64,000 nucleotides of DNA from Planctomycetota bacterium (GTDB lineage: Bacteria > Planctomycetota > UBA1135 > GCA-002686595). The DNA lies in contig JACKHT010000002.1 of the NCBI GenBank assembly GCA_020638855.1, forward strand, positions 430,154-494,153, read 5' to 3'. The position numbers and the translations under genes are program-made. Below, piece by piece: positions 20,081 to 64,000 of this stretch (its first letter is position 1; each line of letters opens with the position of its first letter). The notes under the pieces are model-generated. The model did no database searches. It saw only the letters and a program-made list of their open reading frames with translations, and had not been told where the DNA came from.

Positions 20081-20863
20081 CTAGCGAGCGTCGGATGCAG
20101 CGAACGTTTGAGCCACACCTGCGACCAGCTGGGTCGAACCTTCGGCGTGCAACCACTCGGCTGTGCCGTCGAGAATCTCGACGGAGAGCCCGGCGGGGGT
20201 TTGCTGGAGGTTCGCCCGGCAGGCCGCTTTGGCAATCAGGACTCCTCCATCGCTGTAACAACGGAAGGGACCTTGCACCGCGACACGGCCTTGGAAGAGT
20301 CGCATGCTCACCGGGTGCATCGATTCCAGGCGCACTTCGGCGCCAGGATCCAAGTCCCACACGGTTTTGCCGCTCTGAACTTGCGCGTGCCCAGCGGGCC
20401 CCACGAACAAGCGCTCGCGCACGCGCATGCGAACCCCTTGGGCACCGGGGGCCAGCTCCTGGCCGCGCAGCCAAACGTCGGCGACCTGGGCTTGGACTTG
20501 AGCGCCACCGGGAGTCATCAGCTTGTGACTCAGGCCCCACATCAACAGGGCAAAGAAGGCGGGGTACACGAGGGTCCGCAGCCGACTGCGCATCCAGTTG
20601 CGCGAGGGCCCCGACTCGAAGACGTCTTGTCGAAGACTATGGCGTCGCAGGGCCTTTTCCTGGGCCAAGCGAGTGATCCGTTTTTCATGCCCGAGCCGGG
20701 CCAAAGTCCCGGCGACCCGTTCGAAGTGCTCGGCGCACCCGGGGCACCCCCCCAAATGCTCGCGCAAGGCGCCCCGCTCCTGGGGCGCCAAACTGGCGCT
20801 GGCGAAGCGCTGCACCAGGGCCTGGGCGGCCAGGCAATCGATTTCCGAAACGAGGGCAGACAT
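20081..20863 (-). CDS. Anti-sigma factor: N-terminal zf-HC2 zinc finger, one TM, periplasmic FecR-like domain
   Basis: REHLGGCPGCAEHFER forms a zf-HC2-type H..C..C motif. The TM segment is LVYPAFFALLMWGLS. The C-terminal domain carries FecR-like beta-strands (VRMRVRERLFVGPAGHAQVQSGKTVWDL). No sigma factor gene is adjacent. Confidence 0.6.
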   Translation of the reverse strand: MSALVSEIDCLAAQALVQRFASASLAPQERGALREHLGGCPGCAEHFERVAGTLARLGHEKRITRLAQEKALRRHSLRQDVFESGPSRNWMRSRLRTLVYPAFFALLMWGLSHKLMTPGGAQVQAQVADVWLRGQELAPGAQGVRMRVRERLFVGPAGHAQVQSGKTVWDLDPGAEVRLESMHPVSMRLFQGRVAVQGPFRCYSDGGVLIAKAACRANLQQTPAGLSVEILDGTAEWLHAEGSTQLVAGVAQTFAASDAR

Positions 20864-24897: not shown

Positions 24898-27393
24898 GTG
24901 ACCCTGCCCCCTTCCCCTGAAGACTCCGCGTGGCCCCAAGTGGGTGACTCGGTGGGACCCTGGCTCCTGATCCGGCCCTACCAGCTCGAGGGATCGGGGG
25001 AAATGTTCGTCGCCCGCCGCGCCGACGGCGCGTTCGATCGGGAAGTCTTGATCACCTTCCTGCGCCCCGATGCGGCCAACCCGTTTGCGCGCCAGGATTT
25101 TGAACGGGAAGTCGAACTCCAAGCCACCCTGGAGCATCCGGGGATCGCCAAGCTCTATGGTGCGGACACGACGGAGGGAGGCATCCCTTACATGGTCACG
25201 GAGTACCTTCCGGGCCAAGACATCGAGGTGTACCTGGACGCCAAGCGTGCCGGACTCCAAGAGCGCATCGAACTCTTCCTCGAACTCTGCCAAGCCGTGC
25301 AGCATGCTCACGAACAAGGCATTGTCGGACTCCACCTGCAAACCAACAACGTACACCTCTTGCCCGATGGAACCATTCGCACGGTGGTCTATGGCCTAGC
25401 ACACTCGAACCCATCCGCAGCGCGCGTCCTGGAACCCATTTGGCCGCAGTACGCCATCGAGTACGCCAGTCCCGAGGAATGGGCCGGTGCGCCGATCACG
25501 GGGGTGGCGGATGTGTACTCGTTGGGTGTGGTACTGCACGTGCTGCTCACGGGCGAGCTGGCCCACGACTTGCAGGGCTTGACTCCGGCCGAAGCGGCGG
25601 CGCAGGTGCATCAGGATTGGTTGGAGCCTGCGTCGGCACGGGTCCGACAGCGTGGGGATGCCACCCGTGCCCGTGCTCGAGGGTTGAACGTCAAACAATG
25701 GGCCCATGCCCTCGACGGCGACCTCGATCGCATCCTGGCCAAGGCCCTGGCGCAAGACTCCAGCCGGCGCTACCAAACGCCCCTCGCACTCGCCGAAGAC
25801 TTGGAGCGGCACCTCCAAGGCAAGCCGATCCGCGCGCGGGGACCCGCACCTTTCTACGCACTCCGAAGAGGGTTTGCGCGCCACCGCAGCGCGGTGCTTG
25901 CATCGGTCGCCGTGCTCGGGACCCTCGGTTGGGCGCTGAGTGCCAGCTATCGAAGCTCGGTCCGCGCCCAGATCGCCCTGGAGGATGCCAGGCGCGCCGA
26001 ATTGGAAGCGGACCACCAAAGCACCCGATTGCGCGAGTTGTGCATCCGCTTCCTGACCGAATTGGGTCCCACCATGCAAGGCCGCTCGGGGCTCGAAGAC
26101 GCCAGGCGCTATCTGTTGAACGTGGGGACCCCCCTGCTCGACCACCTCCAGGAAACCGGCTACGAAGATCCCCACCTGCGCGCGCAGATTGCCCAATCCT
26201 ATTCGCAGCTGGCCGAGGCAGATTGGATCGCCCAAGATGTGGGCAGCTTTGCCCGCACGCCCGACTCGGTTCGCCGGGCGCGGACCTTGACTCGCTCGGT
26301 CTTGCTATCGACCCAGGGACCGGCGACCGACCGCGGGATCATGTCTTGGGTTCGCTCGGTGCGCTGCGCGATTTGGTTTGCGGGTTTGATGCTCGACGAG
26401 CCCGCCGGCATGCAGGCCCTAGCGGAAAGCCAGCAGGAACTCGAGGAGGCGGGCTTGCGTGAATCCGACCTGCCCCCGCTCGCCATGGTGCATTGGCTGG
26501 AGGCGCGGCGGAGCCTGTTCGCCAGCCGCATGCACTACGACGAAGCCATCGACCTGTGGGATCTGCGGCGGATCCGTAGCTTGGCCGGCAGCGACCCGGC
26601 GATGGAGCCCTTCTTCAGGGGCGACTACCCGCGTTTTGAAGCGTATCGGGCCAACCTGTTGCTGCAATCTGGGCGCGAACGTGAGGCGCTCTTCGAACTT
26701 CCCACTTTGGTGTACCAGCTGCGCGAAGAGGCACGCTCCCATGACCCCCCGGTCGCAGACTTGGTGCAATTGGAAGCCAGCACGTGGCTGATGCTGGCCT
26801 TGGCTCGCACGCGGGTGGGACTTCCCCCCGGCGATGCTCTCTTGGAAGCCCGCTCGTCGCTGGAGCTCATCCAGAACTCGTTCACCGAACAACCGGGCTC
26901 GAGCCACGCCCTGGCCGGGGATTGGATTTGGTTGGCCGAGTGTACCTGGCGCATGGGCTCCGAGCACCGCGACGAAGCTCTAATAGCTTGCAATCGTGCC
27001 ATCGACGCCTGGCGAGAATTGCTGCGCAAAGGGGCGCGCTGGCCCGCATACCATGCCTACTTGGCCGAGGCGCTCGAGCTCAAGGGCCGCATCCTGGAAT
27101 CGGCCGATGACCGCACAGGAGCGGAAGCTTGCTGGATCGAGGCACAGAATGTGCTGGAAGGACTGCCGCTTCCCGCTGCGCAACACTCGCAGGTCCTGCT
27201 GCTCGGCAGCCGCGTCCGGATCGAACTGTGGCGCCTGCAAGGCGTGACCGACCCAAGCGCTTGGGCCAGCGTCGACCAAGTTCTCCAAACACTCCGCGAG
27301 CGCGGCGCTTGCGCGCAGCGAATCGAAGAAATCCAGACCTTAGGGAATCAAGCCTGGAAGCAGCGCCCAACCGAGACAGGAGCGGGTCGATGA
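24898..27393 (+). CDS. Predicted pseudokinase (degenerate Ser/Thr kinase domain) with TM segment and C-terminal helical/TPR-like repeat region, 831 aa
   Basis: The fold is a protein kinase but catalytic residues are replaced. The beta3 Lys is lost (EMFVARRADG versus VAIKV), HRDLKPSN becomes GLHLQTNN, and DFG becomes VYGLA, while the APE-like YASPEE is retained. The TM is AVLASVAVLGTLGWALSASY. GTG start at 24898. The stop overlaps the downstream kinase start. Confidence 0.6.
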   Translation: MTLPPSPEDSAWPQVGDSVGPWLLIRPYQLEGSGEMFVARRADGAFDREVLITFLRPDAANPFARQDFEREVELQATLEHPGIAKLYGADTTEGGIPYMVTEYLPGQDIEVYLDAKRAGLQERIELFLELCQAVQHAHEQGIVGLHLQTNNVHLLPDGTIRTVVYGLAHSNPSAARVLEPIWPQYAIEYASPEEWAGAPITGVADVYSLGVVLHVLLTGELAHDLQGLTPAEAAAQVHQDWLEPASARVRQRGDATRARARGLNVKQWAHALDGDLDRILAKALAQDSSRRYQTPLALAEDLERHLQGKPIRARGPAPFYALRRGFARHRSAVLASVAVLGTLGWALSASYRSSVRAQIALEDARRAELEADHQSTRLRELCIRFLTELGPTMQGRSGLEDARRYLLNVGTPLLDHLQETGYEDPHLRAQIAQSYSQLAEADWIAQDVGSFARTPDSVRRARTLTRSVLLSTQGPATDRGIMSWVRSVRCAIWFAGLMLDEPAGMQALAESQQELEEAGLRESDLPPLAMVHWLEARRSLFASRMHYDEAIDLWDLRRIRSLAGSDPAMEPFFRGDYPRFEAYRANLLLQSGREREALFELPTLVYQLREEARSHDPPVADLVQLEASTWLMLALARTRVGLPPGDALLEARSSLELIQNSFTEQPGSSHALAGDWIWLAECTWRMGSEHRDEALIACNRAIDAWRELLRKGARWPAYHAYLAEALELKGRILESADDRTGAEACWIEAQNVLEGLPLPAAQHSQVLLLGSRVRIELWRLQGVTDPSAWASVDQVLQTLRERGACAQRIEEIQTLGNQAWKQRPTETGAGR

Positions 27394-29867
27394 GTTCCAG
27401 CGATCCCCTGCTCGAAATCCTGGAGGCCGCCTTGCAGCTCGAGGGCGCCAAGCGAGAGGCCTACCTACAGGAGCGTTGTGGCCAAGATGCCGAGTTGTTG
27501 CGCCGCGTGCGCGACCTGTTGAGCGAGGACTCGCAGTCGGCAGAGTGGGATTTGCAGCGACCCCGTGACCTCTTGTCCCCGATCCTTTCGGTTCGCCAGT
27601 TTCCCCTCTTGGGCGCGAGGCTTGGACCCTGGAAGCTGGTGCGTGTCTTGGGCGAAGGGGGCATGGGAACGGTGTACCTGGGAGAGCGCATCGATGCAGC
27701 GTTCACCCAACAGGTGGCCATCAAGGTCATCCGCCAAGACGTGCGCCAAGGGCGCATGCTCGAACGCTTCGACCAGGAGCGTCACATCCATGCGGCCCTC
27801 GATCACCCATCGATTGCGGCGCTGCTGGATGCGGGGCGCACGCCCGATGGTCTGCCGTACCTCGTGATGGAATTCGTTCCTGGTGAACGGATCGACCACT
27901 ACTGTGAGCATCAAGACTTGGACGCCGTCGAACGGATCCGCCTGTTCCAGCAAGTGTGCCAAGTCGTCCAAGACGTGCACCAACTCGGGGTTTTGCACCG
28001 GGACCTCAAACCGAGCAACTTGGTGGTGCAGCCCAACGGCAAGGTCAAACTGTTGGATTTTGGAGTTGCACTTGTTTTGGGAGCCGGGGCCAACACAGAA
28101 AACGGTGAGTGGCCGTTTTTGACGCCCGCCTATGCCAGCCCGGAGTGCCTGCTGCGCAAGTCCATCACACGAGCCAGCGACCAGTATTCTCTAGGCATCA
28201 TCCTGCAGGAATTGCTCACCGATCGTCGCCCGCTGCTGGCGCGCTCCGGCGAAACTCCTGGAACCGACTCCACCAGCGGGTCCAGCCCTGGGTCGCCCCC
28301 CTCGCTGGGCCGACTACGCCGCGGGTCGCTCGCGATGTACCCCGACAATGGACGCTTCCTACGCGATCTGCGCGCGATTCTGTCGCGCAGTTTGGATCCA
28401 GATCCGCGCAATCGCTACGCGACCATCCGGGATTTGGAGCAGGACTTGGTGTGCCTCCTGGAAGGCGAAGCCGTCAAAGCCCGCCCGGTAGGTACCTGGG
28501 AAGGGCTGCGACGCAAGTGGTCGCTTTACCGACTGCCCATTGCGGGCGTGGGTCTGTTGTCCTTGCTCTTGGCGGGCAGTCTCGGGTACACCCAATACAA
28601 GGGCAAACAGTACCGCACGGCGCTCCAGCAGTCGAAGGTGGCCCGCGCCGACGCCGAGGAACATGCGCAGGTCATGGAGCGCTTTGCGCGCGAGATCCTG
28701 ACCGGACTGGAGCTGCGCTTGCGGCAAGTGCCCAATGCCTACGCGATCCGTGACATGTTGCTGTCGATCGGCACGCAATTTTTTGAGCGCGATCGCTATG
28801 CCAAGTCGATCCCGGAGGGGCTGCTGGTGACCGTTTTGGACGCCTATCGCAACCTAGCCCTGCTCCGGATGTACCCCATGGAGGGTGGAGGAACTCGCCT
28901 CCGTGACGCGATGGAGGCCTTTGGCAAGGCCTACGCGCTGATCCCAACCTTGGAGGCTGCCAATCCGCAACGTGGGCAACGCTACCGAGGCCTCCTGCTG
29001 CTCGACTGGGGCCTAGCGGAGACCGACAACCTCCATTTGGAGTCGGGGTTCCAGAAACTCCGGCAGGCTCAAGCGATTTTCGATGGCGCCGCCGATCGCA
29101 GCCAGCAACCCGCCCACCCGGAGGATGCGCTGCGCACCCTGCTGTCGATCGCCTCGAACCGCAACCAGGCTGGGGAGGCGAAAGCCGCGGTGGCGGCACT
29201 CGACCGCCTAGCCAAGGTCGAATCGCTGCTCAGTGCCGAGCGCCTGACCGACCCCTTCTTGGAAGGTACCTGCTTCATGGTCAACCTCAGCGCGGCCAAC
29301 CTATGGTGGGACTTGGGGCAAGAAGACCGCGCCCGCACGCTCTACACCGAGCTGCACCAAAAGAACTGGTCGCACCCCAGCGGCAATCCGAATCAGGACG
29401 TCATCAGCGCTTTGGGCTACATCAACCGGCTCAAACTCGACTGGCGCATGGATCCCAAGGCCCCCACCGAGTCCTTGCTGAACCGCTTGGATGGCGTCTT
29501 GCAAGGGCTTCTGCGAGCCGACGTGGAAGACACCCACTACGCGGAGGGGGTAGCCCAGCTGTACAGCTTGCGCGCGCGGATCTTGAACGGAGCGGGTGCT
29601 CCGAGGCAAGCTGCGGAAGCTTTGGAGGAAGCCTTCCGCTTCTGGCGCTTCTGCATCCGAGCCGATCCCGACAACGCCTCCGCCAAACGGGCGATGACGG
29701 AAGACTTGCTGCTCGGCGTGGACCTAGCCCGAAACGAAGGAGCCTCCCCCGCCCGCATCCAAGAACTACGCGAAGAGGCCCGGGCCTACCTGGAAGCCCT
29801 CAAGCACTTGGGAGTCGACCACCCCCTCGTCGCCCAACGAATCCGCGAACTCGACGCAGGGCGCTGA
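27390..29867 (+). CDS. Ser/Thr protein kinase (canonical) with conserved N-terminal leader, TM segment and C-terminal TPR-like repeats, 825 aa
   Basis: LGEGGMGTVYLG, VAIKVIRQD, HRDLKPSNLVV, LLDFGVA and AYASPECLL motifs. N-terminal DPLLEILEAALQLEGAKREAYLQERCGQDAELLRRVRDLL. TM LYRLPIAGVGLLSLLLAGSLGY. The ATG at 27390 overlaps the pseudokinase stop (ATGA). Confidence 0.85.
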   Translation: MSSSDPLLEILEAALQLEGAKREAYLQERCGQDAELLRRVRDLLSEDSQSAEWDLQRPRDLLSPILSVRQFPLLGARLGPWKLVRVLGEGGMGTVYLGERIDAAFTQQVAIKVIRQDVRQGRMLERFDQERHIHAALDHPSIAALLDAGRTPDGLPYLVMEFVPGERIDHYCEHQDLDAVERIRLFQQVCQVVQDVHQLGVLHRDLKPSNLVVQPNGKVKLLDFGVALVLGAGANTENGEWPFLTPAYASPECLLRKSITRASDQYSLGIILQELLTDRRPLLARSGETPGTDSTSGSSPGSPPSLGRLRRGSLAMYPDNGRFLRDLRAILSRSLDPDPRNRYATIRDLEQDLVCLLEGEAVKARPVGTWEGLRRKWSLYRLPIAGVGLLSLLLAGSLGYTQYKGKQYRTALQQSKVARADAEEHAQVMERFAREILTGLELRLRQVPNAYAIRDMLLSIGTQFFERDRYAKSIPEGLLVTVLDAYRNLALLRMYPMEGGGTRLRDAMEAFGKAYALIPTLEAANPQRGQRYRGLLLLDWGLAETDNLHLESGFQKLRQAQAIFDGAADRSQQPAHPEDALRTLLSIASNRNQAGEAKAAVAALDRLAKVESLLSAERLTDPFLEGTCFMVNLSAANLWWDLGQEDRARTLYTELHQKNWSHPSGNPNQDVISALGYINRLKLDWRMDPKAPTESLLNRLDGVLQGLLRADVEDTHYAEGVAQLYSLRARILNGAGAPRQAAEALEEAFRFWRFCIRADPDNASAKRAMTEDLLLGVDLARNEGASPARIQELREEARAYLEALKHLGVDHPLVAQRIRELDAGR

Positions 29868-29887
29868 GATTCGCCCCTGGCACGATC

Positions 29888-30460
29888 CTAAGCGCGCAAA
29901 CGATCGCGCAGCCAAATGCGCGCCACTTTCCAACGTCGCTCGACGGTGGCAGGAGAAAGCTCCAGGATGCGAGCGGTTTCTTCGATGGTCAGGCCCGCGA
30001 AGAAGCGCAGCTCTACCAAGCGGGCCAACTCCGCATCGGCCAACGCCAATTGGTCCAGAGCTTCGTGCAAGGCAATCACGTCGAGCGATTGCTCTTCGAA
30101 AGCCACCACGACTTGGTCGAGTGGCAAAGGACGCTCCGAACCGCCCCGCTTGACGGCGTTGCGCTTGCGAGCATGGTCCACCAAGACGTTGCGCATGGCC
30201 TTGGCTGCAACCCGGATGAAGTGCTGCCGGTCTTGCCAATGGGGCGTCTCATCGGTCCCCAACAGGCGCATGTAGGCCTCGTGGACCAGCGCGGTGGGTT
30301 GGAGCGTGTGGGATTCGCGCTCGCCCCGCATGCACGACGAAGCCACGCTACGCAGCTCCTGATAGACGTAGGGCAAGAGCGCCTCACCGGCCGACTCGTC
30401 CCCCGCACACAGCCGCGCGAGGAGCTGGGTGGCTTCGCTGGAACTAGGAGGGATGGGCAT
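29888..30460 (-). CDS. ECF-type sigma-70 family factor (regions 2 and 4), 190 aa
   Basis: Region 2 EALLPYVYQELRSVASSCMRGERESHTLQPTALVHEAYMRLL and region 4 HTH LVELRFFAGLTIEETARILELSPATVERRWKVARIWL. The start is at the internal ATG (MPIPPSSSEATQLL). The 127-codon upstream extension has no sigma-like sequence. Confidence 0.75.
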   Translation of the reverse strand: MPIPPSSSEATQLLARLCAGDESAGEALLPYVYQELRSVASSCMRGERESHTLQPTALVHEAYMRLLGTDETPHWQDRQHFIRVAAKAMRNVLVDHARKRNAVKRGGSERPLPLDQVVVAFEEQSLDVIALHEALDQLALADAELARLVELRFFAGLTIEETARILELSPATVERRWKVARIWLRDRLRA

Positions 30461-30620
30461 GGAAGGTGGCGAAGGGCTGGATCCCCAGTCTACCCCAAAC
30501 CACCTTGGCCCCGGGGCTACCAGCCCACCGGCCAGCATGGATTCCCCGTGAATGGGGCCGCCCTCCGGGTGTAGAGTAGGAGCCGTCCGGCACCCCCGGT
30601 GCCCCGAACGGAGAAACGCC
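30461..30620. promoter_or_regulatory. 160-bp divergent intergenic region shared by the ECF sigma gene and the nfeD-flotillin operon
   Basis: The only non-coding space between the divergently transcribed sigma (minus) and nfeD (plus) genes. A GGAGA SD lies 6 nt before the nfeD ATG. Promoter elements were not resolved by eye. Confidence 0.3.
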
Positions 30621-31172
30621 ATGGCTTGGATCCTTGAGAATTGGTCTTCCCAGACCCTGTTTGTGGGCTGCGCCATCGTGGGCGGGGCCATCCTGCTGCT
30701 CCAGCTCGTGTTGCTTCTATTCGGAGTCGACGGGGATGCAGACTTGGATGTGGACGGAGGCGACGGTTTTGGATTTGCCTCGATCCGGACCCTCTCCAGC
30801 TTGGTCGCCACCTTCGGACTGGTGGGCTGGTGGGCCCTCAACGAAGGCTACTCCCCGGCCGCGGCCACTGGCTTTGGCGCGGTGGCTGGGCTCCTGATGA
30901 TGTTCCTGGTCGCCTGGCTGTTCTCGCTGCAAAGCAAACTCTTCCAAGACGGCACAGTGGACAGCACCCGAGCGGTGGGCTTGGTGGCCACCGTCTACCT
31001 GCGCATCCCCGCCGCCGGAGAAGGCAAAGGCAAGATCACCGTAGCCCTGCAGGGCCGCACCCATGAGTTCGCCGCTTCGACCAAGGGCTCGGCCATCCCC
31101 ACCGGAGCCGAAGTCCGCGTGGTCGCACAAACTTCCCCCAACACTTTTGAAGTGGAGCCCCTATCCGAATGA
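30621..31172 (+). CDS. NfeD-like (YqiJ-type) membrane protein with C-terminal OB-fold
   Basis: Two N-terminal TM helices, an acidic loop DGDADLDVDGGDG and C-terminal beta-strands (KGKITVALQGRTHEFAAS...VRVV). The stop overlaps the flotillin start (ATGA), the canonical nfeD-floT arrangement. Confidence 0.65.
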   Translation: MAWILENWSSQTLFVGCAIVGGAILLLQLVLLLFGVDGDADLDVDGGDGFGFASIRTLSSLVATFGLVGWWALNEGYSPAAATGFGAVAGLLMMFLVAWLFSLQSKLFQDGTVDSTRAVGLVATVYLRIPAAGEGKGKITVALQGRTHEFAASTKGSAIPTGAEVRVVAQTSPNTFEVEPLSE

Positions 31173-32821
31173 CATCCAGCATGATGCCCCTCGCTTTCGC
31201 CAAGTCCGCGTTCCCCGAGAACGCCGTACCGGCCCTGATCGCCCTCTTGGTGATCGTTGTTTTGGCCGGTTTCTTCCTGATCATAGCCCGGCGCTACAAG
31301 CGCTGCCCCTCCAACAAGATCCTGGTGATCTACGGGCGCACCTCGCGGGGGCAAACCGCCAAAACGGTCCACGGGGGCGGTACCTTCGTGTGGCCCTTGC
31401 TCCAAAGCTACGACTACATCTCGCTCGAGCCCATGCAGATCGAGATCCCGTTGCAAGGGGCTCTTTCGCTCGAGAACATCCGCGTTTCGGTGCCCAGCGT
31501 GTTCACGGTCGCGGTGGGAACCGAAACCGAACAGATGAACAACGCCGCCGTGCGCCTCTTGTCGCTCACCCGCGGTGAGATCATGAAGCAAGCCGAAGAC
31601 ATCATCTTTGGCCAGCTCCGCCAGGTGATCGCCTCGATGAAAATCGAGGAGATCAACAAGGATCGCGACGTGTTCTTGACCAAGGTCCAATCGAGCTTGG
31701 AGCCCGAACTTTCGAAGATCGGCCTCGTGCTGATCAACGTCAACATCAAGGACCTCACCGACGAGTCGGGCTACATCGAAGCCATCGGCCGCAAGGCCGC
31801 TTCGGAGGCCATCAACCAGGCCGAAATCGACGTGGCCAAGCAGGAGCAGCTGGGCGCCATTGGGGTGGCCGCGGCGGACAAGGAGCGTTCGATCCAGGTG
31901 GCCGAACTAGAGAAGGTCCGCGACGTGGGGACCAAGTCCGCCGAGCGGGATCGAAGCGTGGAAATCGCCGAACTCGACCGCGACCGTATCATCGGGGAGA
32001 AACGCGCGGAGTTCACCCGGGAATCCGCCGTGCGCGACGCCCAGCGCGAAATGCGTATCCAAGTGGCCGACGCCGATGCCCACGCGGTGACCGGTGAGAA
32101 CGAGGCGCGCGCCTTGATCGCCAAGACCAACGCCGACCTGCAGGTGCAGGAAGCCAACGCCTACCAAATCGGGGAAACCCGCCAGCGCGAGGCCAAGGCG
32201 GCGGTGCTCGAAGCCGAGTACCTCGCCCAGGCCAAGGCCGCCGAGGCCCAAGGCAAGAAGATCGAAGCCGAAAAGCGCGCCGAGTTGGAGGCAACTGCGC
32301 GGGCCGTTAAGGCCCAAACCATCGTCGACGCCGAAGCCGCTGCCGAACGCGACCGCATCCGCGCCGAAGGCGAAGCCAAGGCCAACTTTGCGCGCCTCGA
32401 GGCCGAAGCCCGGGGCCAATACGAAATCTTGGCCAAGAAGGGTCAGGGTCTGCGCGAGATCATCGAAAGCTGCGGCGGTGCCGACCAAGCCTTCCGCATG
32501 CTGATGCTCGAGCACATCGACCACATCGCCGAAACCGCCGCCAACGCTATCTCCAACATCAAGTTCGACAAGATCGTGGTGTGGGATGGGGCCCAAGGCG
32601 GCGACGGAACCGGAGGAACGGGAACCAGCCGTTTCCTGCGCGGGCTGGCGGGTTCGTTGCCCCCGGCTTTGCAAATGATGCGTGATATCGGTGGAGTCGA
32701 AATGCCCGACTTCTTCGGCAAGTTGATCCTCGAAGACGACCAGCCCAAAGCGCCCGATGCGGACTCCGAGGCCCCGGATGGCGACGCCAAACCCGGCAAG
32801 ACTCCGCCTAAGGGCTCCTGA
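31169..32821 (+). CDS. Flotillin / SPFH (band 7) domain protein, YqiK-like, 550 aa
   Basis: N-terminal TM, an SPFH core (CPSNKILVIYGRTSRG...GGTFVWPLLQSYDYISLEPMQIEIP) and a long EA-rich coiled-coil flotillin tail. Confidence 0.8.
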   Translation: MTSSMMPLAFAKSAFPENAVPALIALLVIVVLAGFFLIIARRYKRCPSNKILVIYGRTSRGQTAKTVHGGGTFVWPLLQSYDYISLEPMQIEIPLQGALSLENIRVSVPSVFTVAVGTETEQMNNAAVRLLSLTRGEIMKQAEDIIFGQLRQVIASMKIEEINKDRDVFLTKVQSSLEPELSKIGLVLINVNIKDLTDESGYIEAIGRKAASEAINQAEIDVAKQEQLGAIGVAAADKERSIQVAELEKVRDVGTKSAERDRSVEIAELDRDRIIGEKRAEFTRESAVRDAQREMRIQVADADAHAVTGENEARALIAKTNADLQVQEANAYQIGETRQREAKAAVLEAEYLAQAKAAEAQGKKIEAEKRAELEATARAVKAQTIVDAEAAAERDRIRAEGEAKANFARLEAEARGQYEILAKKGQGLREIIESCGGADQAFRMLMLEHIDHIAETAANAISNIKFDKIVVWDGAQGGDGTGGTGTSRFLRGLAGSLPPALQMMRDIGGVEMPDFFGKLILEDDQPKAPDADSEAPDGDAKPGKTPPKGS

Positions 32822-60066: not shown

Positions 60067-63066
60067 TCACTGGAGTCCGAGTGCTCGGGCGGCTTCGGCA
60101 CGGTACCACAAGTTGTGGCTACTCCCCGCATCGGGCTCGATCGCCAAGTACGTCAAGCCTCGGTCGTACCAAGACCGCGCTTCGACTTTCTCGTCGAGGC
60201 CCGCATGGGCCATGGCCAACGCAAACCACCGGGCCGGATAGGTGCCATCGCCGATTTTGTCGCCTTGCTTGAGGTCGGCAATCGCTTCCGAGTACTCTCC
60301 AAGAAACAAGTGTGCCATGCCGCTCGTTGTCCAGAGGAAGTCTCGGTTCGAATCGATGTCGAGCCCCTTGCGTGCCATTTTGATGCTTTCGAGGAGCAGC
60401 AACCGATTGCCTTCGGGTGTGCCATTGATTGGGATCAACCAATTCTTGCCTTGTCGGTTGGCAGCCATGAGCAGGAACCCCGCATACCTTTGATACGCTT
60501 CTGCGTAGCCGTCGAATTCAAACTCCATTCGCTGGCTCGCTTCGGCGATGGGGGCGGGGTCTGCGGTTGCGCTCGCGACCAGGAGAAACGGCGAGAACAT
60601 CGCGGTTCGGATGAAGTACCCACGACTCGTCCAGGAGTCCAAACCCCGCCGCCCGAACTCCAGTGCCCGTGCGTACTCTCCTTTGCTGGCAGCAATCGAA
60701 CCCAGCACCGTATTGCCCCAGCCCACCGTCCAAGTGCCTTGCCCATCCGCGACACACCGTTCGAACAGCTCGCGCGCCTCGTCCACTCGACCCAGGCGAA
60801 GCAGGTCTTGGCCCTTTCGAAACCAAAAATCGGGGGTACTCGGATCTAGCTTGATCGCATGGTCTTGCTCCAACAGAGCCTCCTCCAGATAACCCAATTT
60901 GCTCAAGTTCCGTGCGAGGTAGTGATAGGCAAGAGCCGAAGAAGGATCGATCGCAACAACCGCCCGAAAATGCTGCAGAGCCTCGCGCATCTCATCATCC
61001 GGAGCGATCTCGTCGGGACCCGGGGTGAGTTCGCTCGCGAGCATGTAATGCAACTGAAAGTCGTCCGCATGCGCTTCGAGCCCCTTCCGGAAGACGGAGA
61101 GCCCGAGGTCTCGGTCGCCTAGCCGAATGAGCGAACTCGCGAGCAACGCGAAGGTGCTGGCCGGCTGGTTCTCAAACCCCCCTTGGGCTAGGTAGCGCAG
61201 CTCGTCCAAATCCCGCACCGCCATGGCTTCGCGCAGGTGGGCACGGTCGGGATCCGGGTCCACGATGTGCGCAATTTCCAACAAACGCAGGGCTCCCTCA
61301 TCATTGCCATCGGTTCGCCGGACATCGCCCCAATGGTCGAGAAGCAAAGCCACCTCGGAGCCGAGCCCCCTAGCATGGAGTTGCGCCGCGGCATCCTCGA
61401 CTTCGCCTTCCGCCAGATCGATTCCGTGGCCAAGGAAGGCATCGTGAAACAGCTGCTCCTTTGCCGTACCACCCTCTTCCGACGTCTGTCGGGTGATCTC
61501 CCGCAGGCTGGCCAGCAAGCGCTGCGTATCCAGCTTGAGCTCTTCCTGCTTGCGAGCATCCTCCAAGCCTATGCGAAGCCGCGTGAGCGTTTCGTTGACC
61601 GAAGCCGTGAGGTCGGTACCTGCACCACCTGCTTCCGCCAGGGCACGGGCCCGCTCGGCGGCCGCGATCGCCTCCTCCCAGCGAGCCTTCCCCTCCAAAA
61701 CCGCGGCCTCGTTCAAGGCCGCGTGAATTTCCAAACCAAGCGAGGCCTCCCGTTCTGCCGCCGCTTGGCGCTGCTCGGACTCTTGGCGTTGGCGCCCCGC
61801 ACGCTCGTTCTGCACCCACAGCCAGCCTCCGCTGCCAATCAGCACGGCGGCGACGACTGCGGCACCCAGCGCCAGGGTCAGGCGCCGCGCGCGACGATCC
61901 TCCTCCGCACGCACCCGGGCCTCCGCCGCTTCCACGTTGGCTTTGTGCGCGCGTTCTTCGTTCGAAACCACGTAATTGTGGATGATTTCCGCCAAGACTC
62001 CAGCATCCGCCGGACGGGCGGCAGGCGCAGCGATCAGACATTGCTTGGCGGCCTTTACCAGCACAGGATCGGCATCGCATTGGTCCAAGCGCTCAAACGC
62101 ATCGTCGAGTTCGGCGTTGGCCGCGGCGCCAATGATTTGATCGAAGTCTCCCACGTAGGGCGGGGAACCCGTGAGGATTTCGCACAGGATGGCGCCTAGG
62201 GCGAACACGTCGGAGCGTTCATCAAGCCGATCCACCTGGCCTCTTGCCTGCTCAGGAGGCATGTAAGCCGGCGTCCCAAGGACCGAGCCGACCAGGGATT
62301 GCGACCCCGCCGCCGTGCCTTCACTGCGGACGGTTTCCAAAATCGTCATGTGCGTTTGCGCATCGCGCGAACGTTTTTCGTCGGCAACCCCACCACGCAC
62401 CAGGACTTTCGCAAGCCCCCAGTCGACCACTTGCACCTCGCCAAAGGCGCCCACCATGATGTTCGCAGGCTTCAGGTCCCGGTGCAGCACGCCGCGCGAG
62501 TGCGCATAGCCCATCGTTTGGCAGACGGACTCGAAGACGTCCAGCAGTTTGCCTCGATTTGCGCTCGGCCCTTCCCGCTGCGTGAGCAGGGCGGCGAGCG
62601 TGCGCCCCTTCACAAGCTTCATGGTGAAGTAGGGACGCTCGTCCTCCATCATCCCGAGCTCATACACCGGGACGATCCCCGGGTGTTGGAGCTGGCCACC
62701 GATCTGCGCCTCCTCGACAAAGCGTTGCACGATGTCCGTACGGCCGCAGAGCTGCTTTGCCAGCACTTTGACCGCGATGTCGCGGCCGAGGTCGGTGTCG
62801 TGCCCCTTAAGGATCACGCCCATGCCCCCACGGGCGATCTCCCCCATGAATTGGTAATTCCCCCGCCCCTGGGGTACCGACAACTTCTCCTTGGAGCTTG
62901 GGTCGATGACGGGCTCCGATACGGCACCCGAGTCCTCGGCGCGCAAGTTGATCCTCGGCGCTTCGCCCGTCTTCGCCTCTAAGAACTTCAGCACCGATTG
63001 TCCCGCATCACCGGCAACTCGCGGAACTGGGTCGCCGCTTTGGGCGTTTTTGTCGGATGATTCCAT
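60067..63066 (-). CDS. Ser/Thr protein kinase with TM segment and extensive C-terminal TPR repeat domain, 999 aa
   Basis: [38 protein letters not shown] and [10 protein letters not shown] motifs. [25 protein letters not shown]. Multiple TPR-like repeats follow. The ATG is at 63066. The 82-codon upstream extension was rejected. Confidence 0.85.
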
Positions 63067-63290
63067 AGCCTGACCCGCTGAGCGGAAATCGTTGGGAGAA
63101 GTGGTGTCGTGGAGATGGCCAACTGCCGGGCGAATCCTAGGCCTTCGGACGCGAATCGGTGCCCTCGGTAGCCTGGAGGCGCATGCGAAGCTCGCCCCGC
63201 CTTCTGAGCTGCGCCCGTGTTTTTCTGGGAGCCTCGGTTCCGCCCACTTCCAGGCTAGCATAGAATCGGGCCTCACGTCACTCGAGTCCA

Positions 63291-64000
63291 TGCGCGCATT
63301 AGCGGACGCCAATTACGCCATGAGCATCATCGCCATCCTTAGCCTCGCGGTCCTTTCCCCGTGCCCCCCCATCCAGGCTGGACAGCTCGAGCAGGCTTCC
63401 ACGGTCGGCGTCCAAGACGACGACGTGACAAAGGCAATCCGAGCCGCTGGACAAGATGTCGCGAAACTCATCGCGCTTGCGACCAGCTACGAAGAAGCCT
63501 CCAAGCCCGATGAGGCCAAGCGCGTGTACCAGCGCGTGATCGAGATCGACGTAGACAACGAACTCGCACGCAAAGCATTGCGCCACGAGCGCTACGATGG
63601 GCGCTGGTTTGAGAGCTATGTCGAGCTCGCAAGATACAAGCGTGAGGAAGCCAAGCGCATGAAAGCGAAAGGCCTCGTCAGCTTCGAGGACGGATGGGTA
63701 CCCGAAGCCGACCTTCCATTCCTTCGCATGGGTTGGGTGCACGACGACAAGGGAGCCTGGGTGCACCCGGGAGACCTAGCCCAAGCCAAGAAAGTGGCGG
63801 AATGGGAGGCAGCGGGTTACCAGTTCCGACCCGATGATTTCAGCTGGATTGCACCCGAGGATCTCGAAAAGTGGACGGCTCTCCTGTGGAAGTGTGGCGA
63901 CGAGTGGCTGCCCACCGAACAGGCCGATGCCTACCATTCTGACGTCAAACGTCCGTGGGTCTTGGCCGGTGAACACTTCGAGGTATCCACGACTTGCCCT
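63291..64000 (+). CDS. Partial (3'-truncated by the window edge) secreted protein with a TPR-like helical N-domain, lower-GC gene
   Basis: An open frame from ATG 63291 to the window end, absent from the ORF track because no stop falls in the window. It carries the signal peptide [22 protein letters not shown] and reads as real protein ([34 protein letters not shown]). It is preferred over the antisense ORF 63299..63766. The alternative start is ATG 63321. Confidence 0.5.

Follow-up and report, generated by a model that had tools for sequence, protein, structure and literature searches.

Results

Gene organisation of the locus

The locus described here lies in a stretch of 64,000 nucleotides of a Planctomycetota bacterium, hereafter the window, and includes an ECF sigma factor gene, a convergent gene for a receptor Ser/Thr kinase and, overlapping the kinase start, a gene for a receptor pseudokinase. 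Two context genes, NfeD-like and flotillin, are found on the promoter side of the sigma gene (Table 1).

Table 1. Features of the sigma/kinase locus and its context, with positions in the window
Feature	Position	Strand	Basis
ECF sigma factor, 190 aa, TIGR02999/PF07638 (ECF43-type)	29888..30460	-	profile matches, comparison with EcfK
Thr56 codon within LQPTALVHEAY, predicted regulatory phospho-acceptor, sigma region 2.2	30293..30295	-	alignment to EcfK T51; phosphosite from PMC13147305
20-bp gap between convergent stop codons	29868..29887		coordinates
Hanks-type receptor Ser/Thr kinase with active-type motifs, 825 aa	27390..29867	+	profile and motifs
Kinase N-terminal leader, residues 5-51, three-helix module	27402..27542	+	leader HMM, AlphaFold2, PknS homology
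Kinase catalytic domain, residues 76-358, catalytic motifs all intact	27615..28463	+	motif alignment
Kinase single predicted transmembrane helix, residues 382-400	28533..28589	+	prediction
Kinase extracytoplasmic C-terminal domain, about 425 aa	28590..29864	+	Pfam, without significant family
Receptor pseudokinase paralogue, 831 aa, leaderless	24898..27393	+	Pkinase match, motif loss
Pseudokinase predicted transmembrane helix, residues 331-349	25888..25944	+	prediction
Divergent intergenic region, sigma gene/NfeD-like gene	30461..30611		three-way alignment; interpretation
NfeD-like membrane protein (context; candidate only for membership of the system)	30612..31172	+	weak Pfam match, transmembrane prediction
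Band_7/flotillin gene (context)	31169..32821	+	PF01145 match

The stop codons of the kinase and sigma genes occupy positions 29865-29867 and 29888-29890, respectively, in agreement with the original prediction that 20 bp separate them; no terminator-like hairpin was found in this gap, and the locus yielded neither sigma-70 consensus sites nor noteworthy terminators. The sigma gene starts at the ATG at 30460. A longer, TTG-started open reading frame of 317 aa was rejected as an over-extension, because the start position shared by the homologues agrees with the 190-aa model.

As for the promoter side of the sigma gene, which had been described as facing an nfeD-flotillin operon, the flotillin assignment holds (PF01145, 4e-29), while the neighbouring open reading frame at 30612-31172, with two predicted transmembrane helices, matches NfeD only weakly (E = 0.18). 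The three-way alignment of the region between the sigma gene and nfeD shows a conserved block that resembles a housekeeping-type -10 element serving nfeD, not an ECF promoter. No ECF-type promoter could be defined either in the intergenic alignment or in the region upstream of the pseudokinase, which showed no conservation.

Assignment of the sigma factor and region 2.2

The sigma factor matches PF07638 over residues 8-189 (3e-58), with region-4 matches as well, and scores 208.3 bits on TIGR02999 (Sig-70_X6), against a curated cut-off of 126.15 bits; on TIGR02984 (Planctomycete-specific subfamily 1) it reaches only 19 bits. Its architecture is that of an ECF protein with sigma2 and sigma4 domains only, and its length falls within the roughly 180-200 aa expected of ECF43. 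For comparison we used EcfK of Xanthomonas citri, an ECF43 sigma factor directly phosphorylated at T51 by the kinase PknS (PMC13147305), whose sequence was rebuilt from published MS peptides. The rebuilt EcfK reaches 164 bits on TIGR02999, which places it in the NCBIfam subfamily of the window sigma factor, and 87 bits on PF07638.

Specifically, region 2.2 of the window sigma factor reads LQPTALVHEAY in place of the acidic DAED motif of other ECFs, and its uncharged QPTA with a conserved Thr corresponds to the ECF43 consensus QTTA. When the window segment HTLQPTALVHEAYMR was aligned with the EcfK segment AGLQATELVHEAWMR, T56 fell opposite the phospho-threonine T51, in a context common to both proteins (LQxT-LVHEA[WY]MR). 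The Thr56 column holds T in 66 of 70 aligned sequences and is invariant among the paralogues of alignment A1. By analogy with EcfK, Thr56 would be the residue phosphorylated in the source organism. The second regulatory site of EcfK differs: T106 is Pro113 in the window protein, so that any two-site EcfK mechanism does not carry over, and EcfK S108 is a fixed Asp115. In conclusion, homology to EcfK and the region 2.2 motif support the assignment of this sigma factor to the ECF43 type.

The receptor kinase and its relation to PknS

The kinase matches Pkinase (Pfam) at 1.6e-40 and carries the full active set of a Hanks-type enzyme, namely the Gly-rich loop (GxGxxG), the VAIK-Lys, the HRD-Asp and catalytic Asn within HRDLKPSN, and the DFG-Asp (motif string GGGKEHRDKNDFG). 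It had been named a TPR kinase; the kinase part of this name stands, whereas the TPR label was not confirmed, since the best Pfam TPR match of the C-terminal domain is weak (E = 0.54) and no significant family emerged for this domain in the Pfam search. The best PDB match is 9EED, corresponding to PknS(1-364), with E = 3e-47 and an alignment that spans the leader, compared to 5e-35 for PknB. PknS is thus the closest solved relative of the window kinase, with which it shares an N-terminal leader, a Hanks domain, one transmembrane helix and a large periplasmic domain. Unlike the EcfK/PknS system, the window genes are convergent, are encoded together with a pseudokinase and lie outside a type VI secretion (T6SS) context, and no TPR was detected by Pfam in the periplasmic domain.

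Genomic coupling of the sigma factor and the kinase

The original prediction viewed the sigma gene as belonging to a family genomically linked to Ser/Thr kinases, and the Hanks-type kinase gene 20 bp away is the co-location expected of ECF43. Coupling was assessed on 84 TIGR02999-type sigma factors from species-representative genomes, within a distance of 500 bp, and a metagenome scan was run with the kinase alignment as query. A kinase was found within 500 bp of the sigma gene in 66/84 cases, and the leader, whose conservation among sigma-adjacent kinases had been put forward as a check, is present on 62 of those 66 kinases. Conversely, such a sigma factor lies within 500 bp of 47 of the 59 leader-bearing kinases (12 of the 59 being without an adjacent one), against 6 of the 17 leaderless kinases (Fisher p = 9e-4). 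Kinase co-occurrence therefore holds in both directions, the opposite of the lack of co-occurrence that the original prediction had named as speaking against it. The pairing itself fits the kinase-linked pattern and, at this frequency, is characteristic of the family and not a chance neighbourhood, while the convergent layout is an exception, seen in 2 of the 84 cases. An apparent sigma-kinase fusion (P0212) was rejected as Rosetta-stone evidence, because a further frameshift in the kinase on the same contig makes an assembly error probable.

The N-terminal leader of the kinase

A leader HMM built from homologue-search matches recognises the N-terminus of the window kinase (1.1e-12), with no second match elsewhere in the 64-kb window. 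AlphaFold2 places helices at residues 6-15, 19-30 and 34-51 with a pLDDT of about 90, and a leader profile searched against the PDB retrieved only PknS, at residues 9-55 (E = 4.5e-8); like PknS, the window kinase bears a helical leader N-terminal to its kinase domain. The conserved leader reported earlier is thus real, but it is not peculiar to this locus: the module, of about 48 aa, occurs in more than 62,000 protein clusters (50% identity), in arrays of up to ten copies per kinase. The kinase with ten leaders (P0241) has no adjacent TIGR02999 sigma gene at its locus, which indicates that leader number does not simply mirror the neighbouring sigma factors.

Leader distances correlate with sigma distances (r = 0.46) more than with those of the leader's own kinase domain (r = 0.14), and the partial leader-sigma correlation is 0.45 (permutation p = 5e-4). 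Hence, the leader appears to evolve with the sigma factor rather than with the kinase domain to which it is attached. The phosphosite segment is invariant among the sigma paralogues, so that specificity must come from elsewhere. On the strength of the co-variation, the leader is most likely a recognition or docking module for the cognate sigma factor. The 2026 study of PknS states of the leader only that it "may play a functional role" (PMC13147305).

A different origin of such co-variation can be envisaged, in which sigma gene and leader are inherited together as a single stretch of DNA and recombination takes place in the disordered linker.

The co-variation would also be compatible with the leader being a built-in anti-sigma domain, which sequesters the sigma factor at the membrane and releases it on kinase activation, the kinase being an anti-sigma/kinase hybrid. 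A helical bundle of about 50 aa is close in size to minimal anti-sigma domains, and there is a faint resemblance between L-P-x-E-R...C-x-x-D of the leader and L-x-P-E-E...C-x-x-C of zf-HC2 (hhalign P = 0.022). However, the hhalign probability against a small alignment of zinc-binding anti-sigma (ZAS) domains is only 2%, the PDB profile search points to PknS alone, and Pfam, which has no model for the leader, gave neither a zf-HC2 nor any other match for 37 leaders at E up to 10. In addition, the literature describes ECF43 sigma factors as intrinsically inactive, so that no sequestration would be needed. We therefore regard an anti-sigma function of the leader as unlikely and favour its role in docking.

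Search for an anti-sigma factor

The open reading frame list and the Pfam searches of the locus revealed no anti-sigma gene flanking the sigma gene, as originally proposed and as expected of ECF43; yet a gene for a zf-HC2 anti-sigma-like protein is located at a distance of 9 kb (20081-20863, minus strand). A conventional anti-sigma factor encoded elsewhere, such as this membrane protein, could hold the sigma factor, the kinase being incidental or acting on the anti-sigma factor, in the manner of mycobacterial PknB and RshA/RseA. This gene carries the motif HLGGCPGC, scores exactly at the gathering threshold (22.2 bits, E = 1.5e-4) and has no sigma gene adjacent to it. No other sigma gene was detected in the 64-kb window by phmmer with ECF seeds or by a relaxed HMM search, both of low sensitivity, the seeds having missed even the known sigma factor. 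In L002 and L003, an orthologue of the zf-HC2 gene is present within the corresponding block, but the whole block is syntenic among these close relatives, which makes this conservation uninformative. Moreover, the gene adjoins gltX, five genes and 9 kb away from the sigma gene, and a ZAS-like open reading frame occurs within 10 kb at only 4 of 80 family loci, compared to an adjacent kinase in 66 of 84. Finally, according to the published ECF43 model, a sigma factor without DAED should be inactive even when free. Control by this or another distant anti-sigma factor is, in our opinion, very unlikely, and phosphorylation by the adjacent kinase is the reading that we retain.

The pseudokinase

The pseudokinase that the original prediction added to the locus is borne out by the sequence: the protein has a kinase fold (Pkinase, 5.8e-16) in which the catalytic Lys, the HRD-Asp and the DFG-Asp are lost (K to T, HRD to GLH, catalytic-loop K to Q, DFG to VYG), while E91 and N171 are retained. 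It scores 216 bits on the HMM of the leader-kinase subfamily. Its TGA stop codon overlaps the kinase ATG as ATGA, and L001-L004 and L166 share both this 4-bp overlap and the order of the genes.

The pseudokinase clade consists of about 8 clusters from one Planctomycetota lineage, all with full-length intact open reading frames that share T, GL[HN], Q and V[YF]G at 45-53% identity. Estimates of dN/dS, rough because dS is saturated, are 0.27-0.39 for the pseudokinase and 0.31-0.33 for the kinase, and the pseudokinase appears to be under purifying selection. That it is a functionless, decaying duplicate beside a standard sigma/kinase pair, as its paralogy with the kinase (30% identity over 411 aa), its confinement to one narrow lineage and its split over two open reading frames in the MAG L001 might suggest, is highly improbable given the intact and identically substituted open reading frames, these dN/dS values, saturated as dS is, the conserved overlap and the retained E91 and N171. 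The pseudokinase is most likely a non-catalytic co-receptor or allosteric modulator paired with the kinase.

Discussion

Kinase-linked sigma factors form a very large family in Acidobacteriota, Planctomycetota and their relatives. [quoted passage not shown]

The data presented above are compatible with a model in which the locus encodes an ECF43-type sigma/kinase signalling module. The sigma factor alone would be unable to bind the RNA polymerase core productively, because, as we propose in line with the DAED-loss model for ECF43 sigma factors (PMC13147305, PMC8999054), region 2.2 has QPTA in place of its acidic DAED patch. The adjacent membrane receptor kinase would use its C-terminal domain of 425 aa to sense a signal outside the cytoplasm, and would then autoactivate and phosphorylate Thr56, supplying the missing negative charge and switching on the regulon. 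The three-helix leader would most likely recognise or dock the cognate sigma factor, and the co-translated pseudokinase, of the same membrane topology and devoid of leader and catalytic residues, would most likely modulate the kinase allosterically or serve it as a co-receptor without catalytic function. Taken as a whole, we consider this model probable, although the leader-bearing kinases with no sigma gene beside them, the Pro at the second EcfK site and the zf-HC2 gene within the conserved block count against it. The originally proposed control by phosphorylation, instead of sequestration by an anti-sigma factor, finds support in the subfamily shared with EcfK, the loss of DAED together with a near-invariant Thr, the likeness to PknS and the two-way co-occurrence with kinases.

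As summarised in two reviews (PMC8999054, PMC7826278), EcfP/PknT of Vibrio parahaemolyticus is a comparable ECF43 system, in which an intrinsically inactive sigma factor is activated by its cognate threonine kinase, an anti-sigma factor being absent from the system as described there. On that description, a single regulatory Thr lies in a non-acidic region 2.2 in both cases, STTA in EcfP and QPTA in the window, the phylum and the genomic context being different. Other kinase-associated ECF groups, ECF59-62 and ECF217, are found in Planctomycetes (PMC7826278), the phylum of the window, and likewise have an adjacent Ser/Thr kinase and no anti-sigma factor. However, these groups keep a DAED-like acidic motif (PMC8999054), and the window sigma factor appears to be set apart from them by this description and by its TIGR02984 score.

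The pseudokinases of the bSTK atlas (bioRxiv 10.1101/2025.01.12.632604) likewise lack the VAIK-Lys, the HRD-Asp and the DFG-Asp while keeping the kinase fold, and they are presumed, as is the window protein here, to act allosterically or as non-catalytic scaffolds; the atlas does not mention sigma factors. Compared to the families of the atlas, the window clade is very small, with 8 clusters; it arose from the leader-kinase subfamily and is always translationally coupled to its active paralogue.

In conclusion, the locus belongs to a known class of kinase-switched sigma factors and is a rather ordinary example, its unusual parts being the dead-kinase partner and the unannotated leader. It adds to the family a predicted single-site member, with Thr56 only, and its conserved pseudokinase/kinase pair, which would feed one sigma factor, offers a bacterial case for pseudokinase-based receptor modulation. 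The comparative evidence indicates that the kinase leader belongs evolutionarily with the sigma factor. As a tentative extension, which we hold to be possible rather than probable, the leader could serve kinase-regulated ECF sigma factors in general as an adaptor for sigma-specific docking, evolving with the sigma factor while kinase and sensor domains are exchanged, and in this lineage the leaderless pseudokinase could be a co-receptor that does not recognise the sigma factor and tunes its active partner. If true, this would explain how many paralogous pairs remain insulated despite an invariant phosphosite segment, and the leader, as a docking and specificity element, could be used to predict and rewire sigma-kinase pairs.

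Gene Organization and Identity of the Sigma Factor

The sigma and kinase genes are convergent, with only 20 bp between their stop codons, which confirms the arrangement put forward in the original prediction, and upstream the kinase-like gene (pseudokinase) ends with a stop codon overlapping the kinase start within an ATGA sequence. A longer sigma ORF of 317 aa was rejected as an over-extension, since 34 out of 34 homologues begin at the position matching the ATG at 30460.

Features of the sigma–kinase locus and its surroundings (window positions)
Feature	Position	Strand	Remarks
zf-HC2 anti-sigma-like ORF, 260 aa	20081-20863	minus	HLGGCPGC; score exactly at zf-HC2 gathering
Kinase-like gene (pseudokinase), 831 aa	24898-27393	plus	
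Kinase gene, 825 aa	27390-29867	plus	stop codon 29865-29867
Sigma gene, 190 aa	29888-30460	minus	ATG at 30460; stop codon 29888-29890
Sigma/nfeD intergenic block	30540-30600		
Third Ser/Thr kinase	60070-63312	minus	TPR_2 2.4e-20

As predicted, none of the ORFs adjoining the sigma gene displays anti-sigma features. Its promoter side faces a two-helix membrane protein, which matches NfeD only at E = 0.18, and then, as expected, a Band_7/flotillin gene. The intergenic block, common to the window and the related contigs L001 and L004, consists of CGTGAATGGGG, about 18 nt and TA[GC]A[GC]T (plus strand), and looks like a housekeeping promoter (-10 element) for the NfeD-like/flotillin operon. An inverted repeat near this block, GGCACCGGGGGTGCC, is present only in the window among the three.

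The sigma protein matches Pfam PF07638 (3e-58) and NCBIfam TIGR02999 with 208 bits, the cut-off of the latter being 126 bits. The sequence of EcfK, a Xanthomonas citri ECF43 sigma directly phosphorylated by the kinase PknS (PMC13147305), was 94% reconstructed from the mass-spectrometry peptides of that study, and passes both models (TIGR02999, 164 bits; PF07638, 87 bits). Therefore, the TIGRFAM classification proposed as a check places a bona fide ECF43 member and the window sigma in one curated subfamily. A PDB profile search with the sigma returned a partial match at best (1e-5), the family having no solved structure.

Specifically, the EcfK peptide AGLQATELVHEAWMR, which contains phospho-T51 (PMC13147305), aligns to HTLQPTALVHEAYMR of the window sigma, indicating Thr56 as the equivalent of T51. 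This column holds Thr in 66 of 70 family members and is invariant in a 35-sequence alignment. The position belongs to region 2.2, where other ECFs carry an acidic DAED patch contacting the beta-prime subunit, whereas ECF43 members lack the patch and gain charge through phosphorylation (PMC13147305, PMC8999054). The window sigma reads QPTA in region 2.2 and so fits the ECF43 pattern. In contrast to EcfK, it has Pro113 in place of the second functional site T106 and a fixed Asp115 in place of S108, which suggests a switch with one site, as in EcfP from Vibrio parahaemolyticus.

Association of the Sigma Factor with Leader-Bearing Kinases

The kinase retains all catalytic motifs and one predicted transmembrane helix (residues 382–400). 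Its 425-aa C-terminal domain gave no significant Pfam match (best TPR, E = 0.54), and the TPR label of the original prediction is unconfirmed. The closest solved relative is 9EED (E = 3e-47; PknB, 5e-35), corresponding to PknS(1–364) (PMC13147305), and the alignment begins at residue 10, so that it covers the leader, the N-terminal three-helix module (residues 5–51). The third kinase of the window, with genuine TPR repeats, has neither a leader nor an adjacent TIGR02999 sigma, and offers a contrast, within the window, to the kinase paired with the sigma.

Scanning one genome per species with the sigma alignment yielded 84 TIGR02999-type sigmas, 66 of which have a kinase within 500 bp; 58 of these loci show the canonical order, in which the sigma comes first and a kinase with the leader follows on its strand, and only 2 loci of the scan show the convergent layout of the window. 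In the reverse test, on 80 metagenome loci picked solely by kinase similarity, a TIGR02999-type sigma lies within 500 bp of 47 of the 59 leader-bearing kinases, compared to 6 of the 17 without a detectable leader (odds ratio 7; Fisher p = 9e-4). Therefore, the pairing recurs in both directions, which contradicts the possibility, raised with the original prediction, that kinases do not co-occur with such sigmas in related genomes. Six kinases scored as leaderless (L148, L142, L124, L144, L160, L143) have the sigma 220–430 bp upstream, a gap that can encode an N-terminal segment missed by the leader HMM, so that divergent leader variants probably exist.

The Leader Module and Its Co-Variation with the Sigma Factor

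A 48-position leader profile retrieved 62,346 cluster representatives at E <=1e-3 and 13,695 at E <=1e-10, among 1.84 billion, and matches PknS residues 9–55 (4.5e-8), in agreement with the conservation originally claimed. No Pfam model matches the leader. AlphaFold2 predicts helices at residues 6–15, 19–30 and 34–51 (pLDDT ~90), followed by a disordered linker; in another protein the module reaches pLDDT 93–97. Tandem copies, two, three or even ten, precede the kinase domain in some proteins, arrays of 2–3 being present in many. The 1156-aa kinase P0241 (L085 546–4016) carries ten; its locus has no TIGR02999 sigma in the 545 bp upstream, and the genes called in the 8 kb downstream have no sigma Pfam match. 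The protein P0212 (L167 261–1925) appears as a single-ORF fusion of TIGR02999 sigma, leader and kinase; the same contig carries a further frameshift inside the kinase, so this candidate Rosetta-stone protein was discarded as a probable assembly artefact.

Six loci (L043, L046, L051, L099, L127, L143) contain 2–3 sigma/leader-kinase pairs per 10–20 kb, and with paralogous modules clustered in this way, pair specificity becomes a pressing question. By comparing pairwise distances over 69 sigma/kinase pairs, the leader was found to correlate with the sigma next to it (overall r = 0.46; sigma2 alone, 0.38; sigma4 alone, 0.43), the sigma2 and sigma4 domains of the same pairs correlating at r = 0.54. 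The leader hardly follows its own kinase domain (r = 0.11–0.15), whereas the two kinase lobes follow each other (r = 0.86). The sigma–leader partial correlation given the kinase domain is 0.45 (permutation p = 5e-4). Since paralogues do not differ in the segment around the phosphosite, this segment cannot give pair specificity; from this invariance and the co-variation we infer that the leader is probably the sigma-recognition module. The same co-variation signal would arise if sigma and leader were inherited together on a single stretch of DNA, recombination taking place in the linker. On the window-type HMM, the sigma-adjacent kinase domains of L005–L165 form at least two classes by score (~170–200 and ~400–450 bits), which do not follow sigma or leader similarity, pointing to an exchange of kinase and sensor modules around a sigma–leader unit that remains stable.

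With regard to an anti-sigma factor, the zf-HC2 protein could in principle serve the window sigma: it carries HLGGCPGC, with the exact zf-HC2 gathering score, no sigma lies alongside it, and none further was detected in the window by searches that are insensitive. However, this ORF, directly downstream of gltX and beside a Metallophos gene, sits five genes and 9 kb from the sigma, and among 80 family loci only 4 showed ORFs resembling zinc-binding anti-sigmas. Synteny extends over the whole block, so that the presence of its orthologue at the same place in the related contigs L002 and L003 carries no information. Tests of the leader as a possible degenerate anti-sigma domain gave no support for this idea.

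A Conserved Pseudokinase Partner

The pseudokinase shares 30% identity with the kinase over 411 residues, in an alignment that runs from the kinase domain through the transmembrane helix and past it, and scores 216 bits on the leader-kinase subfamily HMM. It starts ~20 residues ahead of the kinase domain, without a leader, and shows Thr for the catalytic Lys, GLH for HRD, Gln for the catalytic-loop Lys and VYG for DFG. A search of 5.8 billion proteins returned only eight full-length relatives (45–100% identity), all with T, GL[HN], Q and V[YF]G and none with a leader; the next matches are ordinary active kinases (<=211 bits). The ORFs are intact, with dN/dS of 0.27–0.39, near the 0.31–0.33 of the kinase, albeit at saturated dS. 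All five of the related contigs that were examined have the same gene order: esterase, pseudokinase, kinase with the 4-bp overlap, and convergent sigma. A pseudokinase is found in 0 of 80 species-representative loci. Thus, the pseudokinase of the window is a conserved, lineage-specific addition in a Planctomycetota clade, and by analogy may act on the kinase as a co-receptor lacking catalysis or as an allosteric partner.

In conclusion, the ECF43-type region 2.2, Thr56 and the kinase pairing support, at the sequence level, the original prediction of a kinase-linked ECF sigma probably controlled by phosphorylation rather than by an anti-sigma factor. The core of the locus, a kinase-regulated ECF43-type sigma, is known biology, of which this locus is mainly a new member. 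What goes beyond the known picture is the conserved pseudokinase partner and the rare convergent layout, together with the comparative evidence of a widespread, unannotated leader evolving with the sigma.
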